This document shows, piece after piece, positions 29,874-49,540 of a stretch of 64,000 bases of DNA. The notes beneath the pieces were generated by a model. It was not told the origin of the DNA and did no database searches. It was given only the letters and a program-made list of their open reading frames with translations. The stretch is taken from NCBI RefSeq assembly GCF_024700885.2, contig NZ_CP117016.1. One strand, written 5' to 3'. The stretch's first letter is position 1. Every line of letters starts with the position of its first letter. This DNA comes from Escherichia coli. GTDB taxonomy: Bacteria; Pseudomonadota; Gammaproteobacteria; Enterobacterales; Enterobacteriaceae. Position numbers and translations under genes: made by a program.

Positions 29874-30695
29874 ATGCGTACAACCATTGCTGTAGTGTTG
29901 GGTGCAATTAGTTTGACGTCTGCTTTTGTGTTTGCAGATAAACCAGACGTTGCCAAATCGGCAAACGATGAGGTCAGCACCCTGTTTTTTGGTCATGATG
30001 ATCGTGTGCCAGTGAATGACACGACCCAATCACCGTGGGATGCGGTTGGCCAACTGGAAACGGCCAGCGGCAATTTATGTACGGCGACGCTGATTGCACC
30101 CAATCTGGCATTAACGGCAGGACACTGTTTATTGACGCCGCCAAAGGGTAAAGCCGATAAAGCGGTAGCGCTGCGTTTCGTGTCAAATAAAGGTCTTTGG
30201 CGCTATGAGATCCACGACATAGAAGGCCGCGTTGATCCGACACTGGGAAAGCGGTTAAAAGCAGATGGGGATGGTTGGATTGTTCCTCCCGCAGCTGCAC
30301 CATGGGACTTCGGCTTGATTGTGCTGCGTAATCCCCCTTCTGGCATTACACCATTGCCGTTATTTGAGGGAGATAAAGCCGCGCTTACCGCCGCATTAAA
30401 AGCGGCAGGTCGTAAAGTGACTCAGGCGGGATACCCTGAAGATCATCTCGATACGTTGTACAGTCATCAAAACTGTGAAGTGACTGGCTGGGCGCAAACG
30501 TCGGTGATGTCGCATCAGTGCGATACCTTGCCGGGTGACAGCGGTTCGCCTCTGATGTTGCATACCGATGACGGCTGGCAATTAATTGGGGTGCAAAGTT
30601 CGGCTCCTGCCGCGAAAGATCGCTGGCGCGCCGATAACCGGGCCATTTCTGTTACCGGTTTTCGCGACAAGCTGGATCAACTGTCGCAAAAATAA
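29874..30695 (+). CDS. ydgD: trypsin-like serine protease
   Basis: TAGHC and GDSGSP catalytic motifs; signal peptide. Confidence 0.9.
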
Positions 30696-30733
30696 TGTTC
30701 AAACGCTGCCCGACAGCGCGGGCAGCGTGTTCA

Positions 30734-31063
30734 TCAGGCAAGTTTCACCATGATCATTCCAGCCAACAGCAAGACCAGGCCAATCCAGCCTTTACGATTT
30801 AACCGTTGACCAAACAAGATCCAACCTGCGGCTAACGTGGCGGCAATACCAAACCCGCCCCACAATGCATAAGCGACAGACAAGTCGATCCCTTTAACGG
30901 CCTGAGAAAGCGCACTAAAGGCAGCCAGCACCGCCGCCAGGGAGAGCAAGCCAAATATTTTGCGACGAAAGCCGTCAGAAAATTTCAAAAAGACGTTAGC
31001 AACGATTTCCAGCACGATTGCCAATGCCAGCCAGGCGGCGTGAACCCATTCAAACTGCGCCAT
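30734..31063 (-). CDS. mdtI: SMR-family spermidine exporter subunit
   Basis: 109-aa four-helix hydrophobic ORF. Confidence 0.9.
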
Positions 31064-31415
31064 GGTTCACCTCCAGTTCAGGTTTACGCGCTTTACGGGT
31101 ACCTGATTTGATCAATACAATCCCGGCCACCAGGGTGGTTAACCCGGCAATTTTCATCAGCGATAAACTTTCGTCGAATAACAAAACGCTAAACAAGGTA
31201 ATAAATAAAATACCGATACCTTCCCACAGCGCATAAGCTACGCCTAAGGCGATCTTTTTAACGGCGAAAGAGAGAAATATATACGACAGAGAAATCATCA
31301 CCAGCATTAAAATAAAGCCGCCATTTCCCTCACTGACGCTCGCCCATTTCATAGACAGCGTACCGGTAATTTCTGTAGCAATAGCCAGACCTAATAAAAT
31401 CCAATAAATATACAT
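31050..31415 (-). CDS. mdtJ: SMR-family spermidine exporter subunit
   Basis: 121-aa hydrophobic ORF overlapping mdtI. Confidence 0.9.
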
Positions 31416-31826
31416 TGTCCTTCTCCTGCAAGAGAATTATTTTAATTTTCGCTTAATTCAGCGAAACCAAAGTAAAGTGGTCAAGCCCCGCGCATAGCGC
31501 AAGCTTAAGCAGAAGAAAGGACTAAAGCGCGTTGCGCCAGTGCTGCTCACCTACGAGCAAGATAGTGGATGAGGTACGAAGATGGGTAAATGTAGAAAAT
31601 AACGTCCTGAACAAATTGTCCATAATATTACAATTATCCGCAGTGTTGCTTCTCGTCATCGCGGATGATAATTGTCCTCGGTAGTTGAACACGCCTGATT
31701 TGTATCATAGCTTAAGAATTAACTCAAAATATTTTCACTTCTTTACCTGAGCGGTTTGATTTTCGTTATGATGACGGAGCGAAAAAGACATTATTATTAG
31801 CCAAGGAAGAAAAAACGGGGACAAGC

Positions 31827-31991
31827 ATGGCAAAGCCGATCATCACGCTCAATGGCCTAAAAATCGTCATTATGTTGGGAATGCTGGTCATTATTCTCTG
31901 CGGTATCCGTTTTGCCGCCGAGATCATCGTGCCGTTTATTCTCGCATTATTTATTGCTGTTATATATAACTTATTTCGCATAACACATTGA
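31827..31991 (+). pseudogene. tqsA: tqsA 5' fragment (45 native codons fused to 9 island-derived codons)
   Basis: [45 protein letters not shown] then IYNLFRITH*; the reading frame continues at 47218. Confidence 0.85.
31955..31963. repeat. attL core (tgctgttat)
   Basis: Identical 9-mer at both junctions of the interrupted tqsA frame. Confidence 0.7.
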
Positions 31992-32036
31992 TTTAATTAA
32001 ATAATTAACACCGCAAAAAGTGCCAAAAATCGCAAA

Positions 32037-32100
32037 ATGACTACACCAGTGACTACACCGTTCGGTGCACTGTATGAAACAACGTGGAACAAATAGACAC
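32037..32100 (+). repeat. left-end arm repeat (tgactacacc x2 then aacaacgtggaacaa)
   Basis: Near-identical to 47067-47135 in the same orientation. Confidence 0.7.
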
Positions 32101-32179
32101 AAGAAATATACAGGCGGATCATCTTTCCAGGGGGAAGCACACCAATTCATGAGGGGCGTTAATGTCGATATGGGGATCC

Positions 32180-32580
32180 CCACCTACCGGAATTTTTTTC
32201 CGGTTAAACGTTAATCAGGCTGGTGGGCTTTACCTGTTCGGTAGGTGTTATGATTATCGTAATACCTTTCCCCCAATGGGGTAAAAGCATCAACCGTAAC
32301 GAAAGTCGTTATGGTTGCCACTGATACCCCAAATTTGGGTATCACGAGTAAGCCCCAAAATCTGGGTGTTACTCTTACTACCCAAACTACGGGTAGTTTC
32401 CGTAGTTTCATGGTCGAGTTGCAGATCTGCAACTCCCCCATTAACCACAGGCGAATTTCCGCCTTCGGTCATTCCTTAATCATCTGCGTAATCATAATGA
32501 TTATTCAGCAAGCGCAATTTTGCGCTTTGCTTAAAGTTCAGCGAGTTACCGCGCCGACTTCCTCAAATTGAGGTTTCCGA
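32180..32580. other. palindrome-dense non-coding region (candidate packaging site or structured RNA)
   Basis: Inverted repeats read directly: cacctaccg/cggtaggtg, gatacccc-aaat-ttgggtatc, ctaccc/gggtag, ttgcagatctgcaa, gcgcaattttgcgc, cctcaaattgagg. Confidence 0.4.
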
Positions 32581-32689
32581 AAATATCAGCGGGTTAGCGA
32601 TTAAGCTGACCATTAATTAAACTGCGAAAATGTCGTAGTTGTGAGGGGTGTAGCCAACCCATTTTTGGGCCGTCGGGAATATCAACCAG

Positions 32690-32971
32690 TTACCGCCGCA
32701 ACCGCTCCGGCTTCTTCCAGTGGTACGTTATTTTCTCCTTCTCCCGATACATCTCCACGCGGCGACGGTAGGCCAGCAACTCAAGAACTCTGGTTCGTAT
32801 GTTGCGCATATCCACGCCATTAAGTTCTATACCATCACGGCGCATCACCTCAGCAACAACACGCGCATAGTTTTCGGCTGTCACGCTGTCCGGCTGCGTG
32901 GCCTGTTCGTCAGCCTGCTGGCTGATTCCGGCAACGCGGCGGATTAATCCCGTTATTTCGGCTTCTGTCAT
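32690..32971 (-). CDS. hypothetical protein (last gene of head/packaging operon)
   Basis: 93-aa ORF 13 bp downstream of terL on the same strand. Confidence 0.5.
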   Translation of the reverse strand: MTEAEITGLIRRVAGISQQADEQATQPDSVTAENYARVVAEVMRRDGIELNGVDMRNIRTRVLELLAYRRRVEMYREKEKITYHWKKPERLRR

Positions 32972-32984
32972 GCTGCTGACCTCA

Positions 32985-34646
32985 TTACACCCCGCTAAAT
33001 TCTTCCAGTTTCTGGCGGTGGCTGTCGCTTATATCAAAAGCAAAATCCTCATGCTCTGCCTGGAATGTACCAAACGCCATCAGCGCCGCCACGCTCGGGT
33101 CTATCTTGTTCGGTGATTTTTTCTTGTTCGGCTTGATATTGGCGTTCGCGTCACTCTGCATCACGACGTTACTCATCGACCAGGACAACACCGGATCGCC
33201 ACGATGCACAATCACCCTGCGGTTAACAAAAACTTCGAACGATTTCGCCGCCGGACTGAATCTGAGGTAGGTTTGCGGGAACGGCTCCACCTCAAAACCT
33301 GCCCCCTGTAATTGCGTTCTGAGATGCGTGGCGTTCCACGTATCAAAGCCCACCAGCCTGATATTAAATTTCTCCGCGTCCTGCATGATGTCATCTCTGA
33401 TCCGGTCGTAATCAATGCAGTCGCCAGGCGTTGTGCGTATCCAGCCTGCTTTAGCCCACTGACGATAGATGGCGCGGTTTTTATTGGCGGGGTTCTGTAG
33501 CTGAAATTCCGGCAGATAGTGACGGGAAACCAGCATAATGGTTTTACCGACCGGAAAGGCATAGCACACGCTGGAAATATCGCTGGTTGATGATAAGTCC
33601 AGCCCCGCGTAACACTCCTGGCCGTGTAAATCTTCCTCCGTGAACGTTCCGGCACACTCAGCCCATGCGCCGTTACCCATCCACGGGGTAGCCCCCTGGC
33701 ACCAGATATTAAATCGCTTTGTCATCATCTCCACCCACTGCGACGGAATACCCCGCGCTTTCTGGATGGTTGAGGCCAGTTTTTCACGATCGACGGAAAC
33801 ATCAATATTAGGGTTCGCCTTTATCCACATCGCCGGATCATCAACCTCGTTTTCGTCGTCCAGTTCGTAAATCAGTACAAAAATTGAATCGTTAACCTCT
33901 TCGCCGTCCAGGATCTGGCAGCAATAATCATAGTGCTGCTTACAGGCTGAAACGACGTTGCTGCCTGATGTGGTAATGGCAAATAACAGCCCTTCGGGAC
34001 GTGCGCCCATCCCCAGCTCAAGCGCGGAATAAACGCCGTTATCGGGGTGCAAGTGGTATTCGTCCACGATGGAAAGGCTGGGGTTTGTTCCCTCGATGGT
34101 TGCCGCTTTTGCTGCCAGCGGCTTTAACAGGCTGTTGCTTTTCGGGTGTATCACCTTATGCGCCTGAATATTCACCCGCCTGCGTAACGGTCGGGATAAA
34201 AGGCACATCTGACGCGCATCATCAAAGACGATCCGCGCCTGGTCACGGCTCACCGCTGCGGTGTAGATATCCTGCTGACCGTTCTCCATAATCAGAAACC
34301 AGTTAGCCAGAATCGCGGCGGTCGTGGATTTCGCATTTTTGCGCGGCACTTCGATAAAGGCGCTCGTGTATTTGCGCCGTCCGGTGGCCTTAACCTTAAA
34401 GCCGAGGATGCACGCAAAGGCGAACTGCTGCCACGGCTCCAGCTCAATGGGTCTGCCACGCATCGGTCCTTTTACGTGCGGGCACACCCTGGAAAAGGCA
34501 ATAAACCGCTCCACAACCTCACGATCGAACGTGTAAAGGGGGCTTTTAAGGTCCGAAAAGTACCGTTTAACGGCCTGTTTCAGCCGTTTACAGGCCGGAA
34601 TTTTGCCCGTTTTTACGTCTTCTGCGTACTTATTCCAGGCGGTCAA
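32985..34646 (-). CDS. terminase large subunit
   Basis: 553-aa ORF with an N-terminal ATPase-like region and a C-terminal nuclease-like acidic region typical of TerL; overlaps terS by 17 nt. Confidence 0.85.
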   Translation of the reverse strand: MTAWNKYAEDVKTGKIPACKRLKQAVKRYFSDLKSPLYTFDREVVERFIAFSRVCPHVKGPMRGRPIELEPWQQFAFACILGFKVKATGRRKYTSAFIEVPRKNAKSTTAAILANWFLIMENGQQDIYTAAVSRDQARIVFDDARQMCLLSRPLRRRVNIQAHKVIHPKSNSLLKPLAAKAATIEGTNPSLSIVDEYHLHPDNGVYSALELGMGARPEGLLFAITTSGSNVVSACKQHYDYCCQILDGEEVNDSIFVLIYELDDENEVDDPAMWIKANPNIDVSVDREKLASTIQKARGIPSQWVEMMTKRFNIWCQGATPWMGNGAWAECAGTFTEEDLHGQECYAGLDLSSTSDISSVCYAFPVGKTIMLVSRHYLPEFQLQNPANKNRAIYRQWAKAGWIRTTPGDCIDYDRIRDDIMQDAEKFNIRLVGFDTWNATHLRTQLQGAGFEVEPFPQTYLRFSPAAKSFEVFVNRRVIVHRGDPVLSWSMSNVVMQSDANANIKPNKKKSPNKIDPSVAALMAFGTFQAEHEDFAFDISDSHRQKLEEFSGV

Positions 34647-34986
34647 GCTCGTCCTCTTCTTCTGTTTCCGGTGGGTTTTTACGGCGGCTTATCGGGTCAA
34701 AACCGAGCAAGGAGGCCATTTTTATCATCACCCTTTCAGCGTCTGATTTCGCGCTTAATGCGGGGTTTCTGCTCTCGCCGCCCTGACTGTTAACAATGCT
34801 GAACCCGCGCGCCGCAAGGTCTGCGACGGCTTTCCGGTAAATGGAGTAGTTGACACAATACAGTTCCAGATTGCTCCAGTCGGCGGGGGTCAGGTCTCCC
34901 CGTTCCGCAAGCTGCCGCGATTTTTCCCGCCACTGCTTCACGGCGATGTCATCCAGGTAGGCGGGGGCTTTCGGTGGTCTTGCCAT
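34630..34986 (-). CDS. terminase small subunit (P27-family-like)
   Basis: 118-aa ORF with the W…LTxAD…YC…NPA pattern typical of P27-type TerS; directly upstream of terL. Confidence 0.65.
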   Translation of the reverse strand: MARPPKAPAYLDDIAVKQWREKSRQLAERGDLTPADWSNLELYCVNYSIYRKAVADLAARGFSIVNSQGGESRNPALSAKSDAERVMIKMASLLGFDPISRRKNPPETEEEDELDRLE

Positions 34987-35108
34987 GCTTATTTTTCGTC
35001 AGATTATTTTTCAAAAAATTCCCGTGCATAAAAATTTGAGGAGGCGTTCGGTGCCCGGCGGGGTCGGGTTTGTCCTGAAAACGCCCCCCACCCCGTCATA
35101 CAGCCTCA

Positions 35109-35291
35109 TCAGCGATTGCGGAAACATTCCATAACCTCGCGGTCACGGTCGGTTAATCGCTTCGCTGTGATGCGTTCTGCGCGTCCTGACGCTTTATCTT
35201 TATGCCCTGTTTCCTGTGTCTTCCATGCGTCACGCTGCCTTATAAGTCCACGGATAAGGCGGTTTTGTTCCCGCTCATTCATCAGCGTCAT
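35109..35291 (-). CDS. possible small ORF between HNH and terS
   Basis: ~60 codons (MTLMNEREQNRLIRGL…) within the tail of a longer track ORF; could instead be non-coding cos-region DNA. Confidence 0.25.
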   Translation of the reverse strand: MTLMNEREQNRLIRGLIRQRDAWKTQETGHKDKASGRAERITAKRLTDRDREVMECFRNR

Positions 35292-35715
35292 ACATCCAGT
35301 TATTGCGGTTAGCGGCCCGTTCTTCCTCTTCACGAAATCCACCTGCGGCACGCTTGCTTTTTGTTGCCGGATCAAGCCATTTCGTTTTCTGGTTATGACA
35401 CGCCTGGCACAATGGTTGATGGTTCCATTCGGGCCAGAAGAGAACATCATCACCGCCATTAATCGGGATAATGTGATCCACCACCACGGCGGGCGTATAT
35501 ATCCCCTTCTCAAGGCATCGCACGCATAACGGGTTTTTACTCAGATACATGGCGCGGTATTTGTCCCACTGTCTGGAATATCCACGCGCGCGGCGGTGTC
35601 CTCGTCTGGCATCCTCTGCACGCCATGCCGCCCGCCTGTGCTCCTCACACTTGCCGGATTTAACGCGCCTGTTACAGCCTGGTTCTGTGCATCGTCTTAA
35701 TGGTTGCCACGGCAT
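35275..35715 (-). CDS. HNH endonuclease (terminase-associated)
   Basis: CxxC…HxxP…N…H…CxxCH arrangement in a 146-aa ORF next to terS. Confidence 0.8.
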   Translation of the reverse strand: MPWQPLRRCTEPGCNRRVKSGKCEEHRRAAWRAEDARRGHRRARGYSRQWDKYRAMYLSKNPLCVRCLEKGIYTPAVVVDHIIPINGGDDVLFWPEWNHQPLCQACHNQKTKWLDPATKSKRAAGGFREEEERAANRNNWMYDADE

Positions 35716-36011
35716 CAGTACACCCCCACATCACGGTAAGCCGTCCAGAGTGCGCCTATCGTCATGGGTACGCGTGTTTTTGCGTTATCCGCGACAATCT
35801 GGCGATTTTCATACAGGTGAGCGATAAACATCATGCAGCCAATCTTTATGGCTGGCGTGAACTCCAGCCCGTCATCAAAGCGCCTGCCTATGTGTATCTG
35901 GCACGCCTCAAGCGATGCGGCAATGTATCCGCTGATTAACTGGTCTTCATCGTCGCCATCGATGCGGCAATGGAGTTTCACTTCTTCCAGGGTGATAAGT
36001 TCTTCTGTCAT
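35715..36011 (-). CDS. gp6-like head-tail connector / head completion protein
   Basis: 98-aa ORF with N-terminus …TLEEVKLHCRIDGDDEDQLI… characteristic of this family. Confidence 0.6.
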   Translation of the reverse strand: MTEELITLEEVKLHCRIDGDDEDQLISGYIAASLEACQIHIGRRFDDGLEFTPAIKIGCMMFIAHLYENRQIVADNAKTRVPMTIGALWTAYRDVGVY

Positions 36012-36346
36012 TTTTCCGCGCCCTCACGACAAAGAATTTCAAGGCGTGTCCTGGCGGCATCCGGCAGCGGCTGCCCGATGATATTCAGTACACGCCCCGC
36101 CAGCGGCCCCGTACTGACCTTTATCCGGCTGGTGGCGTTGATGTCCTTCCGGTACCGTATCCAGATCCTTACGGTACCAATCGCCAGCTCTGCGCCCGAT
36201 GAAATGGCCTCCTTGCTGCTGACCATGTTCACGCTTGCCCAGAGTGTGTGACCGTCCTCCCACGTTTCGAGTATTTCGCCGGTTATATCCCTGGTCTGTT
36301 TCAGGGTCTGAATCGTTATCCTGTCACGCAGTCGCCCTATGTTCAT
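36008..36346 (-). CDS. head closure / head-tail adaptor protein
   Basis: ~112 aa from the internal Met of the track ORF; position between portal and gp6-like gene. Confidence 0.5.
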   Translation of the reverse strand: MNIGRLRDRITIQTLKQTRDITGEILETWEDGHTLWASVNMVSSKEAISSGAELAIGTVRIWIRYRKDINATSRIKVSTGPLAGRVLNIIGQPLPDAARTRLEILCREGAEK

Positions 36347-37554
36347 TCCGGTTTTTCTCCCTCGCTGATTTTTACTTCCTGTTTCCATGCCTGGCTGAAC
36401 TCATCACCACCATCACGCGGTGACAGACCTTCACGTTCGCGGGCTTCGTTCGGACACATAACGCCGGATTTGATGCCGCGCTCATAGGTGGCAAAGCGTT
36501 CGCCAGGTGTGGCCCGTAACAGGTCCGCGCTGTCAAACTCCACCTGATACCGGATACCAGGTACAGGCGAGGCCACCAGCAGGGCGTTTTTTATCTGCTG
36601 CTCAAAGTTCGCCAGCCACGGGCGCATCGTCATGGTGAGAAATGCGCGGCTTGCCTCGCTGAAATTGCTGTAGGTGCTGTTGCTGTATTCCTGCAAAAAA
36701 ATCGGCGAGACGTTGAACATTCGGGCGATGTCTTCAATGGTGAAGCGACGGGAGGCCAGCCATTCAGCATCCTGATTACTCATGCCCAGCTGCTGATAGC
36801 TCATACCCCCTTCAAGGATGGGCGTTTTTCCGGCGTTTCTGGCCCCTTTGTAGCGTTCCAGTGCGGCTAATGCCTGTTTGCCCTTCACGCCGTCCAGCCA
36901 TTCGCCTGACGTGATAACCCCTGCCGCCATCATGCCATCACGCATCACGCTCGCGCCGTGGCGTTGTTGGGCCAGCCCAAGCCCCAGCGATTCGCGGCAG
37001 ATGGTTACAGGTGAGCACCCCATAAAGCCGTCATCCGTGGAGTAACGAAGGTGAAGTACTTCCCACGGTAAATAGTTGCGGGTGTTTCCGGTGTAGGCGT
37101 CAGTGATGCAGTAGCGCCAGTTGTGTTCGCCTGTCTGCTCCACGTTCACCGACTGCGGCGGGTAAGGATGTAAAGCCGCCGGAAAACCATCACGCCCCCA
37201 CTGAATCACCGCATAAGCATTACCGTTTAACAGGCAGTGGCGGATCATCATTCGCTTAAACTGGTAGGGGGTTTGCCATGCGTTCGGGCGCTCGTTGAGG
37301 ATGTGATCGACCGGATGAGAATCAAGCCACTCGCGGGCCTCCTTCCCCTTCTCATTGCGTACCAGGTACAGGTAACACGGCATGGTAGCCACCGCCTCAG
37401 AGATGACCGTCACGGCGTTCATGACGGCGGGCAGTGATTCCGCTGTCCCCGATGATACGTACTCACCCGCCCCCGTGTTCGATGTGCCAGCCAGCGCCAT
37501 AAATTCATCCAGCGTCATGCTGCGCTGCTCTTTTTTTCTTCTGAAAGGCCACAT
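36343..37554 (-). CDS. portal protein (HK97 family)
   Basis: 403-aa ORF; size and position next to the prohead protease. Confidence 0.85.
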   Translation of the reverse strand: MWPFRRKKEQRSMTLDEFMALAGTSNTGAGEYVSSGTAESLPAVMNAVTVISEAVATMPCYLYLVRNEKGKEAREWLDSHPVDHILNERPNAWQTPYQFKRMMIRHCLLNGNAYAVIQWGRDGFPAALHPYPPQSVNVEQTGEHNWRYCITDAYTGNTRNYLPWEVLHLRYSTDDGFMGCSPVTICRESLGLGLAQQRHGASVMRDGMMAAGVITSGEWLDGVKGKQALAALERYKGARNAGKTPILEGGMSYQQLGMSNQDAEWLASRRFTIEDIARMFNVSPIFLQEYSNSTYSNFSEASRAFLTMTMRPWLANFEQQIKNALLVASPVPGIRYQVEFDSADLLRATPGERFATYERGIKSGVMCPNEAREREGLSPRDGGDEFSQAWKQEVKISEGEKPE

Positions 37555-37555
37555 A

Positions 37556-38128
37556 TCACACCCCCGCTAAATCCACCCACCAGCGGCGATTATCCGCACG
37601 CGGCATTTTTTCGGGGTGCTGCTCATACAGGGAACGGCGGGCCAGCTCCACGCCGGAATCGGGGTAAGCCGGTACCGATGTAACGGTAATTTCGTACAGT
37701 TCCGCCACCAGCACGGTGCGCACGCATGGATCTGTTGTGGTATCCCATACATCCTTACGGGAGCGAAAGCCAAAGCTCATCCCCGAGATGTCCCCACGCT
37801 TAACCAGTTCGATAACGTCGCGCCCTGTACTGGTATCCGGTGGGGTCAGTTCAAAGCGTAACCCTGTTTCGTCCTCTTCCAGTTTCAGCGTGCCGGAACG
37901 GGTGCGCCCCAGTAACATGCTGTGGTCATGCTCATACAGGCCGCGAACGTCATTACCCGCCGCAAGCCACTCAGTAAACGCCCCCCGCTGGAATTTTTCG
38001 TAAAACTCCCCCCATAGCAGTTCTGAAAGCTTATCCCAGCGAACAACGTAGCCCGTCAGCGTACCGGCTCCGCTGGTAGTGATTTCCGATGACCGGATTT
38101 CCATACTCTTCATAATTTTTTCACCCAT
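37556..38128 (-). CDS. prohead maturation protease (HK97 family)
   Basis: 190-aa ORF with the GMSFGF region characteristic of HK97 prohead proteases. Confidence 0.85.
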   Translation of the reverse strand: MGEKIMKSMEIRSSEITTSGAGTLTGYVVRWDKLSELLWGEFYEKFQRGAFTEWLAAGNDVRGLYEHDHSMLLGRTRSGTLKLEEDETGLRFELTPPDTSTGRDVIELVKRGDISGMSFGFRSRKDVWDTTTDPCVRTVLVAELYEITVTSVPAYPDSGVELARRSLYEQHPEKMPRADNRRWWVDLAGV

Positions 38129-38167
38129 AAAACACTAAAGGGGCTTTTAAGCCCCTTCTGTATGCTG

Positions 38168-39325
38168 TTAATCGTCGTCCTGTGGCAGTTCCAGAATCTT
38201 GATCGCGTTCGAATCCACCACGCCACCGCCTAAATATTTCTGCGTGAAAATTTTGATGAAGCCCGGCTCTGTGAGGTTGTCCGGTCTGGTGCGAACACCT
38301 GTTTCGTGATCAACAATGTAGTAACCGCGTTTGAAGTCACCCAGGGCAATAACGTTATCCGGCATAAACTCCAGATATTCGACCGGAAGGCCCAGTAACG
38401 TATCAGGATCACCCGCCTGTAAACGGTCGCGCCAGATGTAATCACCGTTCGCGTTCTTCACCTTCTGAAGTTTTGCCGCCGTCGTGGAGTTAACCACCCA
38501 GACCGCGTTTTTGCGGTATTTTTTACGTAATGCAAATTTCAGGTCGATCAGCGGGTCCGCAGATGTCCACGCCAGAGATTCGGAAGGTTTAATTACCTGC
38601 AACGTACCAAAATCACGCTCTTTGTCGTTCTTCTCTGCACGGGGTACGGATAAAAAGCCTTTTGCTTTTTTGTCACCGTCGCCCACAACCAGATCGCTTT
38701 CTTCGGTTTCCGTGAAGTTGTCGCCAATCTCGCCCGTCAGCCATGAAAGGATGTCCACATCGGAAAAATCCACGATTTCCTGCGTGGTGCGCGGGTACGC
38801 ATAGACCGGATACAGCTTAATGCTCACCTCGTTAATCTGCGGGGTGCTGGTCTGTTCGCGTGCCTTACCCTCTTCACCGTGGTTAACGGTCGCACCGCCA
38901 GCGGAAACAAGCTGCTTAAACTCGTTGCTGCTGATTTTCTTCACGGTACAGATGCGGCGCATGGTGGATTCATCCGTCAGCATTCGCATGATTTCGGTGT
39001 TCAGTTCGGGGATAACGGTATAACCACCATCAGCGGGAACGCCTGTACTTAATGCGCGGGTTTCACCTGTCAGAATGTAGTGACGTAGTTCGGCTGGGTC
39101 AGTGGTCTGACTGCTTTTACCTGGCTTGCTGCGCTCTTCGTCTGCAATGGCTTCAAGGCGGGAAATGTCTTTATCGAGGGATTCAGCTTTAGCGCGTAAT
39201 TCGTCAAATTTTGCGCCCTCAGCATCGTTAAGACTGCGGTTTTCTTTTTCCGCGTTCTCCAGCATGTCGCGCATCTGATTTTTAATGGCGGTTTTCTGCT
39301 GGCGTAATTCGATTATTCTCGGCAT
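38168..39325 (-). CDS. major capsid protein (HK97 fold) with N-terminal delta domain
   Basis: 385-aa ORF; N-terminal ~100 aa charged and coiled-coil-like, then a capsid-like region. Confidence 0.85.
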   Translation of the reverse strand: MPRIIELRQQKTAIKNQMRDMLENAEKENRSLNDAEGAKFDELRAKAESLDKDISRLEAIADEERSKPGKSSQTTDPAELRHYILTGETRALSTGVPADGGYTVIPELNTEIMRMLTDESTMRRICTVKKISSNEFKQLVSAGGATVNHGEEGKAREQTSTPQINEVSIKLYPVYAYPRTTQEIVDFSDVDILSWLTGEIGDNFTETEESDLVVGDGDKKAKGFLSVPRAEKNDKERDFGTLQVIKPSESLAWTSADPLIDLKFALRKKYRKNAVWVVNSTTAAKLQKVKNANGDYIWRDRLQAGDPDTLLGLPVEYLEFMPDNVIALGDFKRGYYIVDHETGVRTRPDNLTEPGFIKIFTQKYLGGGVVDSNAIKILELPQDDD

Positions 39326-39362
39326 AAAAAAAGTCCTGGGGTTAAGTAAGGAACTCCAGGAC
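39326..39362 (-). terminator. terminator-like hairpin + U7 immediately 5' of the capsid start codon
   Basis: Minus strand reads gtcctggag…ccaggac then ttttttt then ATG; the AGGA Shine-Dalgarno lies inside the 3' stem arm. Confidence 0.5.
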
Positions 39363-39582
39363 GCGGCAAAAACTCAACCGTTTTTCATAAGGAAATCAGC
39401 AATCGCACCGATCGTTTTCCCGCCTGGTAATGAATATTGGCGAGAACATTAACAGGCGGAAAAGTGGCCCCAGCGTCCTGGCACCACGGGCGAGAATAAT
39501 CATGATTCAGTTCGGGTAAAATATGCCGATCCGCTCAGTGAACAACGTGGAACAACCACGAACAAATAATTTACAAAACATG

Positions 39583-39605
39583 ACAAAAAGCCGGATTGCT
39601 CCGGC
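39583..39605 (-). terminator. intrinsic terminator after the replication-module genes
   Basis: Hairpin gccggagcaatccggc followed by a T-run on the minus strand, just below the 93-aa ORF stop. Confidence 0.55.
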
Positions 39606-39612
39606 TGTGTGA

Positions 39613-39894
39613 TTATCTGTCCTGGTAATTTCGCCATATTTCATTACCAGCACCATCCATACCCATTTCGGCATAAGTGCGATCGACCGCCTTTTTCAGG
39701 TCTCCGTAGTTATCCGGCGGCTCCGGTGGCCTCTGTGCCTTCCTGGAACATTCCAGCCGTCGCATCGTGATGTGATGCCGTTCCTTGTCTGTCTCCACCA
39801 GTTGCATGACTTCACCCCATCGCGCCGACGCTCTCCGGTAAAAGCCTTTCGCCTCCAGTTCTTCCGCTATGCGGTCATGTACCATCGTCCCCAC
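39613..39894 (-). CDS. hypothetical protein
   Basis: 93-aa ORF, operonic with ssb. Confidence 0.5.
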   Translation of the reverse strand: MGTMVHDRIAEELEAKGFYRRASARWGEVMQLVETDKERHHITMRRLECSRKAQRPPEPPDNYGDLKKAVDRTYAEMGMDGAGNEIWRNYQDR

Positions 39895-39897
39895 CCC

Positions 39898-40308
39898 TCA
39901 GAACGGAATATCATCACCGTAAGGGTCATCGCCTCCCGCTGGTGGCTGATTACCCTGTGTGCCTGTGGTCTTGCGTCGGCTCCCACCAGGACGTGCCGCA
40001 CGGGCACTGATTACGCTGTCTGCAATAACCTGATAACCCTGCCGCGTTTCCCCGTTCTGTCCGGTCCACTGGCTGACCTGCATCGTGCCGGATACGCTGG
40101 CAACGTCGCCTTTTTGATGTTTAGCCAGGAAGTCGGCCTGCTTACCAAATGCGATGACCGATAGCCATAACGTCGCCTGTCCATCCTGTGCCTGGCTGCA
40201 TGGCAGCGATACCGCCATACGCGCCAGCGTCATCGGTGTACCCTTGCTGGTCTGTTTTACCTGCGGGTCGTCCACCAGCCGCCCGTAAGCTGCTATCTGT
40301 GCTGTCAT
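39898..40308 (-). CDS. ssb: single-stranded DNA-binding protein
   Basis: 136 aa ending in the acidic DDIPF tail; Gly/Pro-rich linker. Confidence 0.85.
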   Translation of the reverse strand: MTAQIAAYGRLVDDPQVKQTSKGTPMTLARMAVSLPCSQAQDGQATLWLSVIAFGKQADFLAKHQKGDVASVSGTMQVSQWTGQNGETRQGYQVIADSVISARAARPGGSRRKTTGTQGNQPPAGGDDPYGDDIPF

Positions 40309-40583
40309 GATTCCACCTCTCCGGTTTTAACGTTGATGGTTGTTACCTGTTCCGCTTCGGCAATCTCCCGCTCTGTCAGCGTGGCAAAATTTGCCGCCGT
40401 CGTGGTCATGAATGCGCTTATCAGTTTGGGATGTGCTTTCGCGTATCCTTCCCCCGCGTGGCGGTCTATCGTTCTGATTGCCACCTTTAAAGCGTGCTCT
40501 GTCATGTCTAACGCGCGATATTTCGGTTCTGTTCTGTCTCTGCGTTTTTTGAGTGATTTATTAAATTTCCCTGAAGTGTGCAT
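40305..40583 (-). CDS. hypothetical protein
   Basis: 92-aa ORF overlapping the ssb start by 4 nt. Confidence 0.5.
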   Translation of the reverse strand: MHTSGKFNKSLKKRRDRTEPKYRALDMTEHALKVAIRTIDRHAGEGYAKAHPKLISAFMTTTAANFATLTEREIAEAEQVTTINVKTGEVES

Positions 40584-40599
40584 ATTTATTTTTACCCCC

Positions 40600-40865
40600 T
40601 CGTTTAAAAAGTTTTGAGTTGTGCCTCCCCTTGTCTACCTTATCTACCTTAGTGGCCCTCATACCAGTAATGGCGCGGCTTTCAGCGGGGTAGAGTGCTT
40701 TTATCCACTATCTACCCCGTGTCTACCTCCCTGTCTGATTCAGGTAAAATCAGGTAGAGAGGGTAGATAGTGGGTAGACAGTAAAAAAAGGTTATCTACC
40801 TAACTTAATGCACTGAATTAAATGTATTTTTCTTTACTCAGGTAGACAGGGTAGACAGCAATTAC
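40600..40865. repeat. iteron-rich candidate replication origin
   Basis: At least 12 copies of a 7-9-bp unit (ggtagaca / tctacc) in both orientations, immediately 3' of the primase gene. Confidence 0.7.
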
Positions 40866-40871
40866 AAAAAA

Positions 40872-42626
40872 TTATAAAAACGCGTCGCACTCGTCTGTTG
40901 TTATTGCGTTAGTCTGCGTTACTCCCTTAACTTTCCGCGTAATATATTCATGTCCGTAAACTTTCGCGGCTGGCTTCATAGCCTTGCCAAAGTCATTTAC
41001 GTTTAGCGGTTTGCTCCTGCCTGCGTACGCCATAAACGCCAGATAGACGCGGTAAAGGCTGTTTCTGGTCGTGTACTTCACTGAATCGCCACCGCCGCCC
41101 ATCATCAGGCCGCGTGCTTCCTCCAGAAAATTCAGGAACTGGCAAAACTCAATAACCGGATCCGTCTGTTGCTTTATTGCCAGAGCTTCATCACCGTCAC
41201 GCTGTTCCAGTAGTAAAGCCCGTGCCTTCTCAGGGTCGGTAAAGTTCGCCAGCAATCGGCGGATAATGACAGGGATTTCAGCCGCGATCTTTTCCGGTAG
41301 CTCCCTGTCTTTTTCGGCCTCACTGACGATATTGTCGAAACGGAAAATCACGCGACGACGTGCCACACCTCCGGCCCGTTCGGTGAATATCATCGGGTTA
41401 TTGTTGGTCGCCAGCACCACCGCCCTGATTACCGCCGTGAAACGCTTTTCGTATTTCGGGTTAATTTCCACGGGGTCACCGCCCGTGATTTTCTTGATGC
41501 CCGTTCCTTCGCCTGTATATTTCGGCTGGTCAGCCAGGACGATAAGACGACTCCCGACAACCTGCGCACGTCCACCAGCATCATCAAGCGATGTCATTTC
41601 AGCGCTTACCGTGTTCTGTTTCCCTGCCAGAAGGCTGGCTATGTGTGTGAATGTACTTTTACCGCTCCCGCCGTCTCCGGTGGCCTCAATAAACATCTGC
41701 CAGTCGTACCGGTTCGCCATAATCATGTACAGCGCGGCACATATACGCATCATCTTGCGCGGGTCTTTTCCGGCTGCGTGCTCAAGCCATTTATGAAAGT
41801 TTGGCGCGTTATCGCGGATGTTCTCCCCTGGTGCTGGTGGCGTGTACTCAATGCCGTTGTGCGTGGTGATCCAGTTCTCCGGCGTGTGCGGGGAAAATTC
41901 CCCCGTTTTCAGGTCAAGCGCACCATTGGCGAACGGCAACAAATCGCCGGACGGCTCGCCCATTGGTTCGGCAATAACTTTTAACGCTTCCACGGCGTTA
42001 TTGATTACGCGCTTGCTGAAAGTGGCCCTGTGCTCTGAATAGATCGCCACCATTTCGCGGCTAAGTTCCATTGTGCTGACCGGACACCATACCCCGCCGC
42101 GCCATACGTGAACGATTTCACTTTCAGGATGTACGCAAACGCCATCAAAGCGATCGGCAAGCAGTTGCGCGCGCTCACTGTCCGCCATCTGCGAAAGTTG
42201 CGCCTTTTGCTTTACCGGAAGCTCAATGACCAGACCATCAGAAAGATTCTGGCGCTCACGGGCCAGATATTCGCGCCAGTTCTCCACCTTCTGACCGTGC
42301 ATACCATCAGGGTAAAAATTTGCATCCTGTACGCCTGCCGCCGCCAGCTTCTGACCAATCGCCTTTATCATTACTGGCGCAAGATATCCGGCCCTGAATA
42401 TGCGCACGGATTTTCTGCCTTCCGGCACAATTTGCAGCTTATCCAGTTCGGATAACTGCTGCTCCCCAAGCCACACAGGAGGCTCATTATCTCCGGCCAT
42501 ACGCGCGTCATGTTCCTGCCATTGTTTTGCGTGTGACCAGGCATCACTACCCGCAAAAATAATGACTTCTGTTTCTTTGTGTTTTATGCCGCGTGACTGC
42601 TGTTTTACGTTCGGTGCCAGTTTCAT
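40872..42626 (-). CDS. replication protein: primase/helicase (P4-alpha / D5-like)
   Basis: 584-aa ORF with Walker A GDGGSGKST. Confidence 0.8.
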   Translation of the reverse strand: MKLAPNVKQQSRGIKHKETEVIIFAGSDAWSHAKQWQEHDARMAGDNEPPVWLGEQQLSELDKLQIVPEGRKSVRIFRAGYLAPVMIKAIGQKLAAAGVQDANFYPDGMHGQKVENWREYLARERQNLSDGLVIELPVKQKAQLSQMADSERAQLLADRFDGVCVHPESEIVHVWRGGVWCPVSTMELSREMVAIYSEHRATFSKRVINNAVEALKVIAEPMGEPSGDLLPFANGALDLKTGEFSPHTPENWITTHNGIEYTPPAPGENIRDNAPNFHKWLEHAAGKDPRKMMRICAALYMIMANRYDWQMFIEATGDGGSGKSTFTHIASLLAGKQNTVSAEMTSLDDAGGRAQVVGSRLIVLADQPKYTGEGTGIKKITGGDPVEINPKYEKRFTAVIRAVVLATNNNPMIFTERAGGVARRRVIFRFDNIVSEAEKDRELPEKIAAEIPVIIRRLLANFTDPEKARALLLEQRDGDEALAIKQQTDPVIEFCQFLNFLEEARGLMMGGGGDSVKYTTRNSLYRVYLAFMAYAGRSKPLNVNDFGKAMKPAAKVYGHEYITRKVKGVTQTNAITTDECDAFL

Positions 42627-42922
42627 TTTTTACCCCTGAATCCGTTAATCATGGTTTTCAGCTTCTGGATGTTTGCCCGTGCCCTGGCGTTGCTGGTGGA
42701 CACGTTATGCGGCGCGGTCTGTACCAGAGAAAAATCACGCCGGAACTGATAAACAGGCATCACGCAATCATATTCGTAACCTTCACGGCGGTAGGTTACG
42801 CGCCGTTCTTCCACGCCCTTAATCATTACCGTGCCGCCGTACTGGTCGCGGTAAATATCGCCGCGCGTAAATTTAGGGTGAGTGTTGCCACTGGCAGTTA
42901 AGCCAGAATATTTAAGTTTCAT
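42623..42922 (-). CDS. hypothetical protein
   Basis: 99-aa ORF; stop overlaps primase start (ATGA). Confidence 0.55.
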   Translation of the reverse strand: MKLKYSGLTASGNTHPKFTRGDIYRDQYGGTVMIKGVEERRVTYRREGYEYDCVMPVYQFRRDFSLVQTAPHNVSTSNARARANIQKLKTMINGFRGKK

Positions 42923-42927
42923 TATTT

Positions 42928-43161
42928 TTATTCTCCGGTGTGCTGTTCTTTATATCTGTCGTGCAATAGATCTATTTCTTGCAGTTCCATTATTACAGGC
43001 TCAAGAAGCGTTATTAATGCCGTGGCAATTCTTGATTTTTGTTTGTCGCGTTCATTGTCGCCAAGTGTTTCAAGCCATATGCGCAATATTTCCAGCATGT
43101 TTTCACTGTGAGAAAGTGCAAGAAATGCGCGGTCTATTGTTTCGTGGTAAATATCACGCAT
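42928..43161 (-). CDS. hypothetical protein
   Basis: 77-aa ORF in a tightly packed same-strand operon. Confidence 0.5.
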   Translation of the reverse strand: MRDIYHETIDRAFLALSHSENMLEILRIWLETLGDNERDKQKSRIATALITLLEPVIMELQEIDLLHDRYKEQHTGE

Positions 43162-43387
43162 GGCTTACATCCTCAGGAAATTTTCTTCTATAACGCGCCT
43201 CTGCCACATATTCCGCATAATCGGCGGCGATATTCAGTACATCAAGCCCCGTTGATTTATATTCTCTCGTGGAAAGTAAGAAAAAAGCCGCTCTAATAAG
43301 TTCTGGCATTGACGAAAGCGCATCAGCCGCATCATCAGGAACGCCGGAAAATTCCTGTTTCAGGGAATTAAAACGATCATCACGCAT
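43154..43387 (-). CDS. hypothetical protein
   Basis: 77-aa ORF with 8-nt overlap to the next gene. Confidence 0.5.
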   Translation of the reverse strand: MRDDRFNSLKQEFSGVPDDAADALSSMPELIRAAFFLLSTREYKSTGLDVLNIAADYAEYVAEARYRRKFPEDVSHA

Positions 43388-43745
43388 GTTTACCCCCCTG
43401 AATGACCTGATAACCGCAACTGGTCAGCAACTCGATAAATTCCGGCAGTGTGCCGAAACAGCAATCATCACGCAGCCGTTCACAGGATACCTCGACGCCG
43501 TTTTCGTAGTGACTCACCATACATCCGGTAAAATGCAGATCATCATCGTGATGGCTCGTTGACGGCTTAATCAGTCGCGCACGTTCCGCCAGTTCCAGCA
43601 ATGCTTCAACGCTTCCGGCAATTGCACCATCCGGCAGGTGATAATTACGCACTATGCGCCCGTTCTCCACATTGACCAGCAACTGCCCGGTAAATTTCTC
43701 ATCAAACTGAATGCTGTTAAGGTCAGAAATTGACAGATTATGCAT
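43380..43745 (-). CDS. hypothetical protein
   Basis: ~121 aa from MHNLSISDL; Cys-containing. Confidence 0.5.
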   Translation of the reverse strand: MHNLSISDLNSIQFDEKFTGQLLVNVENGRIVRNYHLPDGAIAGSVEALLELAERARLIKPSTSHHDDDLHFTGCMVSHYENGVEVSCERLRDDCCFGTLPEFIELLTSCGYQVIQGGKHA

Positions 43746-43962
43746 GGTGCACCTCCTGCACATCAGCCATGATAATTTTTCCGGCCTTATCCAGTGCCTG
43801 ATCGGCTTTTAGCTGCACAAATGCTAAATAATGGAAGATGCATTCTGATTCTCTGGCTGCGTGTTTATGCGCCCTGTCAGCAATAACAGAAATATCAATA
43901 AGCGCGTGCATCAGCGTAGTGAGCGCGGCGGCGGCTGCGTCCGGTGTGGTTTTATTGCACAT
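43738..43962 (-). CDS. hypothetical protein
   Basis: ~74 aa from an internal Met of the 92-aa track ORF; start uncertain. Confidence 0.4.
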   Translation of the reverse strand: MCNKTTPDAAAAALTTLMHALIDISVIADRAHKHAARESECIFHYLAFVQLKADQALDKAGKIIMADVQEVHHA

Positions 43963-44182
43963 GTACCCCTCCGCATTTTTTTTCGTTAGAAATAAGCGTT
44001 CTTCTTTCCTGTTCATCGCTCAGGAATACGCAGACCTCACCGCTAAGGCGTTTAAGTAAGCCGATGATTGCCCCTGATTCGCTGTCGGTCATCATGCCAG
44101 GGTAATCCTCTGCCAGTGCGCAAATAACTTCGATTTGGTGGGCGCGTTCTGCTGCCTGTTGTAGTGTGATTTCCTGGCTCAT
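43952..44182 (-). CDS. hypothetical protein
   Basis: 76-aa ORF. Confidence 0.5.
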   Translation of the reverse strand: MSQEITLQQAAERAHQIEVICALAEDYPGMMTDSESGAIIGLLKRLSGEVCVFLSDEQERRTLISNEKKCGGVHVQ

Positions 44183-44379
44183 AAGCCTACCCCCTGACGA
44201 ATACGGGCAGCAAATACCATCACGCAGCCAGCCGGAGATTGCTGGCGTGCTTCCTGTTCGCTGGTGGCCTCAATGGTAATCACGCGCGGTTGTGCCGTGC
44301 TCAGGGCGATAAAACGCCAGATGTATTTATTCAGGTTGTGCGAGTCCCGCCCTTGCGGGTGTGTGGTATGATTTCTCAT
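44179..44379 (-). CDS. hypothetical protein (possible first gene of early operon)
   Basis: 66 codons from the last Met of the long track ORF; GAGGT RBS 4 nt upstream; stop overlaps the next start. Confidence 0.35.
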   Translation of the reverse strand: MRNHTTHPQGRDSHNLNKYIWRFIALSTAQPRVITIEATSEQEARQQSPAGCVMVFAARIRQGVGL

Positions 44380-44475
44380 AGCTACCTCGATACTTTCGCT
44401 ATCGTTGGTGGTTAGAAGCCCGGTTAGTGTTAGCGCACTGCCGGGTTTCGTCGTTTCTGCACCTTGCGCCAACAA

Positions 44476-44549
44476 GGTGTTGAACACCAATTTAAACCCA
44501 GGTGTTAAACACGTCAAGTGTTGAACACTTATTTTTTTTCCTGCATACT
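44476..44549. promoter_or_regulatory. divergent control region with three 13-bp palindromic operators and a sigma70-like promoter
   Basis: ggtgttgaacacc (44476-44488), ggtgttaaacacg (44501-44513), agtgttgaacact (44517-44529); ttgaac -35 and catact -10 with 17-bp spacer. Confidence 0.6.
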
Positions 44550-44578
44550 GCATTTGTTTTTTATGAGGGGTACACCAC

Positions 44579-44758
44579 ATGGCGACAAAAGCGGTAAACG
44601 CAAAATCACAAACCGTTGCGGCAAGGGTTCCGCATGAAGTTATGAACAATGTTGAGGCGGTAAAAATGCCTGGCGAAAGTACGGGGCAATTTGTTACTGC
44701 GGCATTAAAACGAGAAGTTGAATATCGCCAGCGGCGCAAGGCCAAAGAACCAGAGTAA
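44579..44758 (+). CDS. small DNA-binding protein, probable ribbon-helix-helix regulator
   Basis: Hand-translated 59-aa ORF MATKAVNAKSQTVAARVPHEVMNNVEAVKMPGESTGQFVTAALKREVEYRQRRKAKEPE; gagggg RBS 8 nt upstream. Confidence 0.55.
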   Translation: MATKAVNAKSQTVAARVPHEVMNNVEAVKMPGESTGQFVTAALKREVEYRQRRKAKEPE

Positions 44759-45084
44759 TCACCATCAGCGCCGTGGTGTAAGGTATTACGGCGCATTGCT
44801 ATGCAGGACAACACAATGACCGATAAAGAATTGACCAAAACATTATCACCGGCACGGAAAAGACGGCGCAGAAAGATAGAGCATGAATCAGAAAGATTCG
44901 CGCCATGTGCTTTTGCCCTTGAGCAATTCCTTAAAGAGTACAGGGAAAAGCGCTCATTGCAGGTATGGCAACGAACTGAACCAGACTGATTGCATTGCCC
45001 ACCAGCCTGATAACGGCTATCATCCCCGTGCTTATGTTTGGGATCACACACACAAACGGCGCAGCGGGTTATCTGTTCAGAAAG

Positions 45085-45112
45085 GCGGCTCCATTTCGGG
45101 GCCGCTTTTTTT
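45085..45112 (+). terminator. intrinsic terminator
   Basis: Hairpin gcggctcc…ggggccgc followed by T7. Confidence 0.6.

Positions 45113-48148: not shown

Positions 48149-49540
<1,392 letters not shown>

Follow-up and report, generated by a model that had tools for sequence, protein, structure and literature searches.

EcCIEDL933, found in O-island 51 of E. coli O157:H7 EDL933, is the prototype of the capsid-forming PICIs (cf-PICIs) and has been established experimentally as a functional satellite, in a study that also describes the gene content and gene order of the proteobacterial cf-PICIs (Alqurainy et al., bioRxiv 10.1101/2022.09.08.507074). The structure of its T=4 capsid is available as PDB 9GYI (He et al., bioRxiv 10.1101/2025.02.11.637232). 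A second reference is EcCI042, a classical PICI of E. coli 042 (Fillol-Salom et al. 2018, PMC6092414), and a third is the HK97-like helper phage HK106 (NC_019768).

The DNA analyzed here, referred to as the window, is a stretch of 64 kb from E. coli, and strain MLI114 is 100% identical to it across the region compared. On the minus strand inside tqsA it contains an element of 15,263 bp (31964-47226) that, read from sequence alone, we regard with high confidence as an integrated cf-PICI of the EcCIEDL933 type. Direct repeats of 9 bp, TGCTGTTAT (reverse complement ATAACAGCA), flank the element at both ends, at 31955-31963 for the int-distal junction, which lies within the tqsA coding sequence, and at 47218-47226 for the int-proximal one. 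The same att core serves the tqsA PICIs EcCI042 and EcCIK1516 (PMC6092414 Table S1). Removal of the element in silico restores an intact tqsA of 344 aa, and 5,166 of 5,426 complete E. coli genomes contain this rebuilt empty-site junction as an uninterrupted stretch. As annotated, all genes of the element but one small one are on the minus strand. The element is flanked by genes of the E. coli core, mdtJI and ydgD to one side, tqsA and pntAB to the other, and the rest of the window contains no prophage. A previous sequence-only reading of this DNA had held that neither the element nor its helper could be identified. For the helper this stands, but the element is recognizable from databases by its EcCIEDL933 and EcCI042 modules and by the published attB in tqsA.

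The same reading had proposed a complete head and packaging module at 32985-39325, and all of its genes are indeed present, intact and on the minus strand, with PHROG matches for every head gene and 96.4-100% identity to the EcCIEDL933 proteins in the profile searches and reference comparison that it had suggested. The module follows the order capsid-protease-portal-connectors-hnh-terS-terL, as in EcCIEDL933, to which it is 97.4% identical in nucleotide sequence over 6,936 bp, in support of the capsid-forming class that had been put forward. It begins with the HK97-fold major capsid protein (38168-39325, 385 aa; phrog_10, E 3.5e-88), which carries an N-terminal delta domain and matches PDB 9GYI with an E value of 5.8e-255. 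It is 99.2% identical to its EcCIEDL933 counterpart (382 of 385 residues), and none of the three substitutions, N82H, T155A and T203N, falls into the connector loop 227-248. A terminator-like hairpin (38137-38158) follows the gene. Next come the HK97-family prohead protease (37556-38128, 190 aa; phrog_80, E 1.9e-67; 97.4% identical to EcCIEDL933), the portal (36343-37554, 403 aa; phrog_12, E 2e-115; 99.0%), the head-closure protein Hc1 (36008-36346, 112 aa; phrog_25; 96.4%) and the head-tail adaptor Ad1 (35715-36011, 98 aa; phrog_40; 99.0%). Hc1 differs from the prototype in 4 of 112 residues, and these substitutions could alter tail compatibility. The HNH endonuclease (35275-35715, 146 aa; phrog_144; 99.3%) precedes a 60-aa ORF (35109-35291; phrog_3173; 100%) that, by gene order counted from the capsid gene as 1786, probably corresponds to 'gene 1792' of EcCIEDL933, mutants of which are severely reduced in transfer (bioRxiv 10.1101/2022.09.08.507074; 10.1101/2025.02.11.637232). 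The P27-family TerS (34630-34986, 118 aa; phrog_83; 100%) and TerL (32985-34646, 553 aa; phrog_9, E 2e-179; 98.7%) complete the module, and the last gene of the operon is a 93-aa ORF with no assigned function (32690-32971, minus strand; phrog_1561) that is also present in EcCIEDL933 and EcCI042. As the head proteins are equal in length to the orthologs of the functional prototype and at least 96.4% identical to them, none of their genes is a pseudogene. Tail, tape-measure and lysis families had no PHROG match among the ORFs of the element, as had been stated before, and the window as a whole, including the core genes beyond the att sites, holds no tail or lysis genes; neither of the two findings named beforehand as speaking against a satellite, such genes just outside the att sites or degenerate head genes, was thus made.

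The leader 5' of the capsid gene (39326-39525, minus strand) is structured, with a fold z-score of -3.99. It includes a small GACG-loop hairpin (39464-39487) that shows compensatory changes among lineages, and another hairpin with a T-run behind it (approximately 39333-39362), which extends over the AGGA ribosome-binding site. Some 230-240 nt 5' of the gene lies a TTGTTC array with a period of 10 bp (39541-39575, minus strand), a candidate operator of the packaging operon for the activator AlpA. When the 400 nt before the capsid gene are compared across 48 related loci, a strictly phased TTGTTC pair is present in 41 of them, at roughly -210 to -245. Helically phased TTGTTC arrays occupy four fixed positions in the element. 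A second one, of about 3.4 GAACAA copies with period 10, is located upstream of alpA in the int-alpA intergenic region (45731-45765), and the other two are phased GAACAA arrays accompanied by tandem GTGACTACACC repeats in the int-distal (32034-32112) and int-proximal (47064-47142) att arms. All four positions are identical in EcCIEDL933, and the arrays may be AlpA operators. In HK97-type genomes cos lies between hnh and terS, and by this analogy we place a candidate cos site in the intergenic region between the HNH gene with its 60-aa ORF and terS (34987-35108, minus strand), which has a G-rich and a C-rich tract. The folding analysis revealed no unusual fold there; as a weak hint for cos, the alignments of two IMG/VR contigs stop at 35050 and 35037, at most 4 nt from the contig ends.

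The four further genes that had been assigned to the same ~15 kb, int, alpA, pri and ssb, were found as well, all on the minus strand. The P4-type tyrosine integrase (45813-47042, 409 aa; phrog_1, E 7e-72) is 91.2% identical to that of EcCIEDL933 and yet uses a different core. AlpA, an activator of the excisionase family (45259-45447, 62 aa; phrog_2790), is 100% identical to the EcCIEDL933 protein and is represented by a single RefSeq entry, WP_000953272.1, in MLI114, EDL933 and 042. The region 3' of alpA (44179-45201, minus strand) is variable: RefSeq annotates an Icd-like gene (44179-44379), a ylcI/ynfO gene (44579-44758, plus strand) and a pseudogene (44754-45201), while mechanically the span reads as a single open frame of 340 aa. 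Six small ORFs on the minus strand (42623-44182), one of them encoding a DUF4222 protein (42623-42922), belong to PHROG families without known function and gave no PADLOC hits. The primase or replication initiator (40872-42626, 584 aa; phrog_864, E 1.2e-175) shares only 32.7% identity with the 710-aa DUF927 protein of EcCIEDL933, and nucleotide likeness is limited to the 5' part. Directly downstream of its gene lies a cluster of 10 iterons, CTRTCTACC, five in either orientation (40631-40858, 228 bp). The motif matches 24 times in the window, with 11.9 matches expected, and 10 of the 24 are in this cluster, which by its position and repeat structure is a candidate replication origin. We assume that the element is competent for replication with a rep allele that differs from that of the prototype. 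The genes for the single-stranded DNA-binding protein (39898-40308; phrog_44; 98.5% identical to EcCIEDL933) and a PerC-family regulator (39613-39885, minus strand), the latter followed by a terminator-like hairpin (39589-39606), lead over to the packaging operon.

With EcCIEDL933 the element shares the size class (15.26 kb, against a published 15.4-15.5 kb), but the prototype resides between ycfD (roxA) and phoQ with the core GGACATATTT, its PerC is 85.6% identical, the region 3' of alpA differs, and EDL933 has a small ORF between its perC and capsid genes that has no counterpart here. With EcCI042, in turn, it has attB, core and orientation in common, and the int-alpA end with the adjoining tqsA flank (44671-48200) is 98.1% identical in nucleotide sequence. 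The AlpA proteins are the same, and ssb, perC, the DUF4222, icd-like and ylcI/ynfO genes and the terminal 93-aa ORF have homologs there. EcCI042, however, is an island of 11 kb with a RepA-helicase replication gene and without portal, protease, HNH and terminase genes. Where the present element has its capsid/terminase module, EcCI042 carries a different gene set, with a major capsid protein, a head decoration protein and hypothetical proteins as annotations. In its att core and int-alpA end the element agrees with EcCI042, its replication gene is a different allele from the prototype's, and it is therefore a recombinant of known modules that joins an EcCIEDL933-type packaging module to the int/att/alpA end of EcCI042.

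Descent from a cf-PICI would also be compatible with an immobile copy, held back by an incompatible rep allele or origin, by the truncated gene 3' of alpA or by the lack of a compatible helper in its niche. We consider this unlikely. The rep allele is unlike that of the prototype and a pseudogene is annotated 3' of alpA, but the iterons adjoin their cognate primase gene, the alpA-proximal arrangement, including the pseudogene-annotated gene, is also that of EcCI042, and the packaging genes, int, alpA, primase and ssb are all intact. At megablast sensitivity, only 17 of the 5,426 E. coli genomes show HK106-like neck and tail DNA. MLI114, with its identity to the window, is not among them, so that at this sensitivity no tail donor of a known type was detected in the host strain. 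The resident prophages of EDL933 likewise do not induce its own island (bioRxiv 10.1101/2022.09.08.507074; 10.1101/2025.02.11.637232), but the tails of cf-PICIs can come from elsewhere than the producing cell (bioRxiv 10.1101/2025.02.11.637232). In addition, at least 80% of an 18-kb query containing the element is found in 138 of 5,426 complete genomes, and isolates from humans, dogs and the environment carry copies of at least 99.8% identity, which suggests recent spread or strong maintenance.

Far less probable still is a decayed HK97-like prophage that deletions have left without tail, lysis and lysogeny modules. The head genes do come from phage families and RefSeq labels them as phage proteins, and historically such elements, O-island 51 among them, were annotated as defective prophages (PMC6092414). 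Decay is, however, hard to reconcile with att repeats of 9 bp that delimit the element precisely and an empty site that fits exactly, with head genes that are free of frameshifts, and with the experimental function of the near-identical EcCIEDL933. The ~15 kb architecture is also found at different att sites of E. coli and in hundreds of genomes, and 357 of the 5,426 contain a capsid module of at least 95% identity. The non-structural half is of the PICI type (int, alpA, DUF4222, pri-rep, perC) and common to EcCI042. Among deposited phages, capsid proteins more than 58% identical belong exclusively to records of ~15-16.5 kb, those of full-size phages reach 40% at most, and a full-length phage genome that has this head module, highly identical, alongside tails and lysis genes was not found. 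HK106 has the same kinds of parts, namely an HK97-fold capsid protein with delta domain, an HK97-type protease, a portal, Ad1 and Hc1 connectors and an HNH-dependent terminase logic, but its gene order differs, and its genome of 41.5 kb includes the neck, tail, lysis and immunity genes that the 15-kb element lacks. Neither its capsid protein (28.6% over 77 aa, E 0.083) nor its TerS gives a significant match, and identities are 26% for the portal, 27% for TerL, 24% for Ad1 and 47% for Hc1 (gp07). Finally, a P4-like satellite or classical PICI that remodels helper capsids, as the P4-type integrase, the AlpA/Vis-family regulator, the primase and the attB shared with EcCI042 might suggest, can practically be dismissed, given that capsid protein, protease, portal, connectors and a full terminase are all encoded by the element itself, that the packaging module of EcCI042 at the corresponding position is a different one, and that no ORF of the element matches other head-related PHROG families.

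For a cf-PICI of the EcCIEDL933 type, the steps of mobilization can be taken from what has been published about the near-identical prototype, from which we infer induction, capsid size and tail specificity of the present element. A helper phage would turn on alpA, and AlpA would activate the island, to be excised by Int (with AlpA) at the ATAACAGCA core and replicated by the primase/initiator from the putative iteron origin. The capsid operon would then be expressed, the HK97-type protease would remove the delta domain of the capsid protein, and small T=4 heads of ~47 nm would assemble on the island's own portal. HNH, TerS and TerL would recognize and cut the island's own cos, placing one genome of ~15 kb in each head, which Ad1 and Hc1 would close. 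Lysis of the cell by a co-resident phage would free the tail-less capsids, which would presumably turn infectious by joining compatible siphovirus tails, in the case of the prototype those of an HK97-like phage such as HK106. Every feature of the proteobacterial cf-PICI family that is accessible to such an analysis appears in the element. With cf-PICIs described in 2022-23 and the capsid structure solved, it belongs to a known family and is an ordinary representative of it.

The RefSeq annotation of the window runs through core genes from ydeE to ydgA and is interrupted by a single foreign block, situated inside tqsA, the gene for the AI-2 transporter. A 9-bp sequence, TGCTGTTAT, is found at 31955-31963 and again at 47218-47226, and removal of the 15,263 bp from 31964 to 47226 restores an uninterrupted tqsA of 344 aa. 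Of 5,426 complete E. coli genomes, 5,166 have the 600-bp junction rebuilt in this way in contiguous form, the best matches being 100% identical. Read on the other strand, this core is ATAACAGCA, the att core given for EcCI042 and EcCIK1516, two phage-inducible chromosomal islands (PICIs) integrated in tqsA (Fillol-Salom et al. 2018, PMC6092414, Table S1). Both att arms contain tandem GTGACTACACC repeats in direct orientation (32037-32059 and 47067-47089) that are possibly arm-type sites of the integrase; similar tandem 'GTAGTTA' motifs can be seen in att cores published for other PICIs of E. coli. In the occupied state tqsA is split at about codon 46 into pieces at 31827-31963 and 47227-48124, and an N-terminally shortened open reading frame could still begin at GTG 47240. 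Note that the stretch 30000-48000 is 100% identical to E. coli strain MLI114 (NZ_CP117013.1), and that at least 80% of these 18 kb is present in 138 of the 5,426 genomes.

The head and packaging module occupies 32985-39325 on the minus strand, from the start codon of the capsid gene at 39325 to the stop codon of the large terminase gene at 32985. Its nine genes encode, in this order, the major capsid protein (385 aa), an HK97-family prohead protease (190 aa), the portal (403 aa), the head-closure protein Hc1 (112 aa), the adaptor Ad1 (98 aa), an HNH endonuclease (146 aa), a 60-aa ORF, TerS of the P27 family (118 aa) and TerL (553 aa), and all nine proteins gave strong PHROG matches. Upstream on the same strand follow int (phrog_1), alpA, an Icd-like gene, small ORFs, a DUF4222 protein, a 584-aa primase (phrog_864), ssb and perC; every annotated gene of the element save one small ORF is on the minus strand in RefSeq. 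No ORF within 31964-47226 matched a tail, tape-measure or lysis family in the PHROG search or the RefSeq annotation. The sequence-only reading, which had proposed a complete tail-less module combined with int, alpA, pri and ssb in about 15 kb and had called for a profile search and a comparison with references of the capsid-forming class (cf-PICIs), is thus borne out. Tail or lysis genes just outside the att sites, or degenerate head genes, had been named as grounds for abandoning it. According to the annotation, however, the flanks and the remainder of the window consist of core E. coli genes and hold no further prophage, and the complete set of capsid, protease, portal, connectors, HNH, TerS and TerL has the lengths of the functional orthologues in EcCIEDL933, the characterised cf-PICI prototype of E. 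coli O157:H7 EDL933.

A PADLOC search for defence cargo among ten ORFs without an assigned function gave no match. A single open frame of 340 aa at 44179-45201 covers three RefSeq entries, namely a truncated gene, the antisense of ylcI/ynfO (annotated on the plus strand at 44579-44758) and the Icd-like gene, and the same arrangement is present in EcCI042, a classical PICI of E. coli 042. Among RNA families, Rfam returned for the element nothing beyond a sub-threshold symR-like match at 44380-44452 on the plus strand (33 bits versus a gathering score of 61).

The island shares features with a classical Gram-negative PICI: EcCI042 occupies the same site, is 98.1% identical over window positions 44671-48200, which take in the int-alpA end together with the neighbouring tqsA flank, and has a 100% identical AlpA. 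However, classical PICIs of the EcCICFT073/EcCI042 type use the capsid and terminase of their helper and have no portal, protease or TerL of their own, and the packaging module of EcCI042 is a different one that lacks genes for portal, protease, HNH and terminase, whereas here the portal, protease, capsid protein, TerS and TerL are all island-encoded. A decayed prophage is very unlikely, since the att repeats are precise, the empty site exists, related elements recur at several att sites and the backbone is of PICI type. A temperate HK97-like prophage should carry tail and lysis genes in about 40 kb, and against the map of phage HK106 (NC_019768), a helper of EcCIEDL933, the element is 15.3 kb in size and devoid of both; protein identities to HK106 range from 24 to 47% where matches are significant, Hc1 (47%) being the closest of the head proteins.

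In its sequence, the element corresponds to a cf-PICI of the proteobacterial lineage. The island falls within the range of about 10-19 kb, has its own integrase and precise 9-bp att repeats, and its PICI-type genes alpA and pri-rep run in one direction with a candidate origin next to them. The head set is complete, the gene order capsid-protease-portal-connectors followed by hnh-terS-terL on the minus strand is that described for these elements (bioRxiv 10.1101/2022.09.08.507074), and no tail, tape-measure or lysis genes are found in or beside the element. The head genes are moreover satellite-specific and distant from those of full-size phages. In 50,697 phage records the best capsid matches, at 58-66% identity, were to records of about 15-16.5 kb, which alone among deposited phages hold capsid proteins more than 58% identical; full-size phages reached 40% at most. 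Two such records, LR881103.1 (16,548 bp, 'Escherichia phage vB_KppS-Ant') and OR544139.1 (15,321 bp, 'Pasteurella phage Pmp8'), have capsids 59-66% identical and, being of cf-PICI size, are probably cf-PICIs that were entered as phages.

The relationship to the prototype is close. In a direct comparison of the loci the whole packaging module is 97.4% nucleotide-identical to that of EcCIEDL933 over 6,936 bp, and a sensitive DNA search gave 98.4% for the portal-protease-capsid segment. Protein identities are 99.2% for the capsid, 97.4% for the protease, 99.0% for the portal, 96.4% for Hc1, 99.0% for Ad1, 99.3% for HNH, 100% for both the 60-aa ORF and TerS, and 98.7% for TerL, as well as 100% for AlpA and 98.5% for SSB. 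The capsid protein matches PDB entry 9GYI with an E value of 5.8e-255 and 382 of 385 identical residues; this entry is the EcCIEDL933 capsid, a T=4 particle of 47.5 nm solved at 3.24 Å (depositors; bioRxiv 10.1101/2025.02.11.637232). The three substitutions are N82H, T155A and T203N. With the published cleavage, after which the mature protein begins at residue 93, N82H falls in the cleaved-off N-terminal part, and all three lie outside the connector loop 227-248 singled out in bioRxiv 10.1101/2025.02.11.637232. The size of the element, 15,263 bp, is compatible with such a T=4, 47.5-nm capsid.

Outside this module the two islands diverge. The integrase of EcCIEDL933 is 91% identical and acts at another core, GGACATATTT, located between roxA (ycfD) and phoQ in EDL933 and matching the core published for this location, and its primase/initiator is another allele, 710 aa versus 584 aa, with 32.7% identity. 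While the element had been considered unidentifiable from its sequence, the databases place it as an EcCIEDL933-type packaging module joined to an EcCI042-type int-alpA end in tqsA; together with the different primase allele, this makes it, as judged from sequence comparison, a recombinant of known modules. Closely related to the characterised cf-PICI prototype, it occupies an attachment site already published for PICIs.

For EcCIEDL933, induction depends on alpA and on HK106 or HK446 as helper phage, transfer needs every gene of the packaging module, gene 1792 being merely strongly helpful, the small capsids consist of island proteins and hold island DNA only, and of the helper genes those for the tail alone are required (bioRxiv 10.1101/2022.09.08.507074). 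Its tail-less capsids can acquire tails from outside the cell, with tail specificity set by the adaptor and connector proteins (bioRxiv 10.1101/2025.02.11.637232). Given the near-identity of the two islands, we infer that this mechanism is the best explanation for the present copy as well. A helper phage would induce the island through alpA, island proteins would build small capsids holding only island DNA, and these would become infectious with helper tails, including tails from outside the cell. In a megablast search, which misses diverged tails, DNA of the HK106-type neck and tail region from adaptor to major tail was detected in 17 of the 5,426 genomes, MLI114 not being among them; in EDL933 itself the prototype is induced by none of the resident prophages (bioRxiv 10.1101/2022.09.08.507074; bioRxiv 10.1101/2025.02.11.637232).

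Repeats of GAACAA/TTGTTC with a 10-bp period form four arrays, one in each att arm (32078-32112 and 47108-47142), one upstream of alpA (45731-45765) and one some 230-240 nt ahead of the capsid gene (39541-39575). The sequence AACAACGTGGAACAA, part of this array, is present in six copies in the element at up to two mismatches, versus 0.28 expected in the whole window, and in EDL933 the arrays are found in the same places. In 48 related loci, pairs in strict phase are confined to these four relative positions, and 41 of the loci have a pair upstream of the capsid gene. The att-arm arrays are missing from elements whose AlpA is a different allele of 94 aa. We found no description of such phased sites in the literature searched. 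Tentatively, the arrays might be operators of one island protein, most plausibly AlpA, with the integrase or another protein as the alternative; AlpA is favoured because it activates its own promoter (PMC6092414). If AlpA binds all four arrays, a single excisionase-family protein would couple excision, auto-activation and the switching on of the capsid and packaging operon.

Compared with shuffled sequence, the capsid leader of about 200 nt (39326-39525, minus strand), which lies downstream of the capsid-proximal array, folds much better (z = -3.99). It contains a small hairpin with an invariant GACG loop at 39464-39487, whose pairing has been preserved between cf-PICI lineages through compensatory changes, and a second hairpin followed by T7 (~39333-39362) that spans the AGGA ribosome-binding site just ahead of the capsid ATG. 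In a consensus structure of the whole leader across lineages the sole common helix is one of 4 bp. Downstream of both perC and the capsid gene there are terminator-like hairpins.

Directly downstream of the primase gene, ten CTRTCTACC iterons, five per orientation, are clustered with an AT-rich spacer within 228 bp (40631-40858), the probable origin for the rep allele of this element. By analogy with HK97-type genomes, the 122-bp intergenic region with G-rich and C-rich tracts between HNH/60-aa ORF and terS (34987-35108) is a candidate cos site; as DNA, it folds no better than shuffled sequence. When contig ends in IMG/VR were inspected for cos, most fell at gene boundaries; the alignments of only two contigs stop in the hnh-terS region, at 35050 and 35037 and no more than 4 nt from the contig ends, a weak hint at a cos site there.

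A search with the capsid module, covering this and related cf-PICI lineages, returned 533 of the 5,426 genomes, 357 with at least 95% identity and 173 in a band around 70%, and IMG/VR holds many near-identical copies. Three members of the ~70% band reside at other att sites (gcd-hpt, cspD-clpS and yhdJ-fis) with the same architecture. In two loci of this lineage (L005 13954-14256 and L006 13984-14286), the annotation shows a single head-tail connector gene between portal and HNH and no head-closure gene, so that the lineage may have a variant neck.

The element thus belongs to a known kind, is nearly known in sequence as well, and establishes no new principle. What it shows is the packaging module of the prototype circulating as a cassette with varying integrase/att and replication modules, here in a tqsA site that earlier work had listed for classical PICIs, with the AI-2 transporter gene split by the insertion. 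The rebuilt junction is matched in 5,422 complete E. coli genomes, and tqsA is non-contiguous in 256 of them; PICI carriage at this site may therefore be accompanied by loss or reversible switching of AI-2 export. More generally, cf-PICIs have only recently been recognised as a means of gene transfer; they combine their own small capsids with tails from unrelated phages, which allows identical islands to cross species boundaries.
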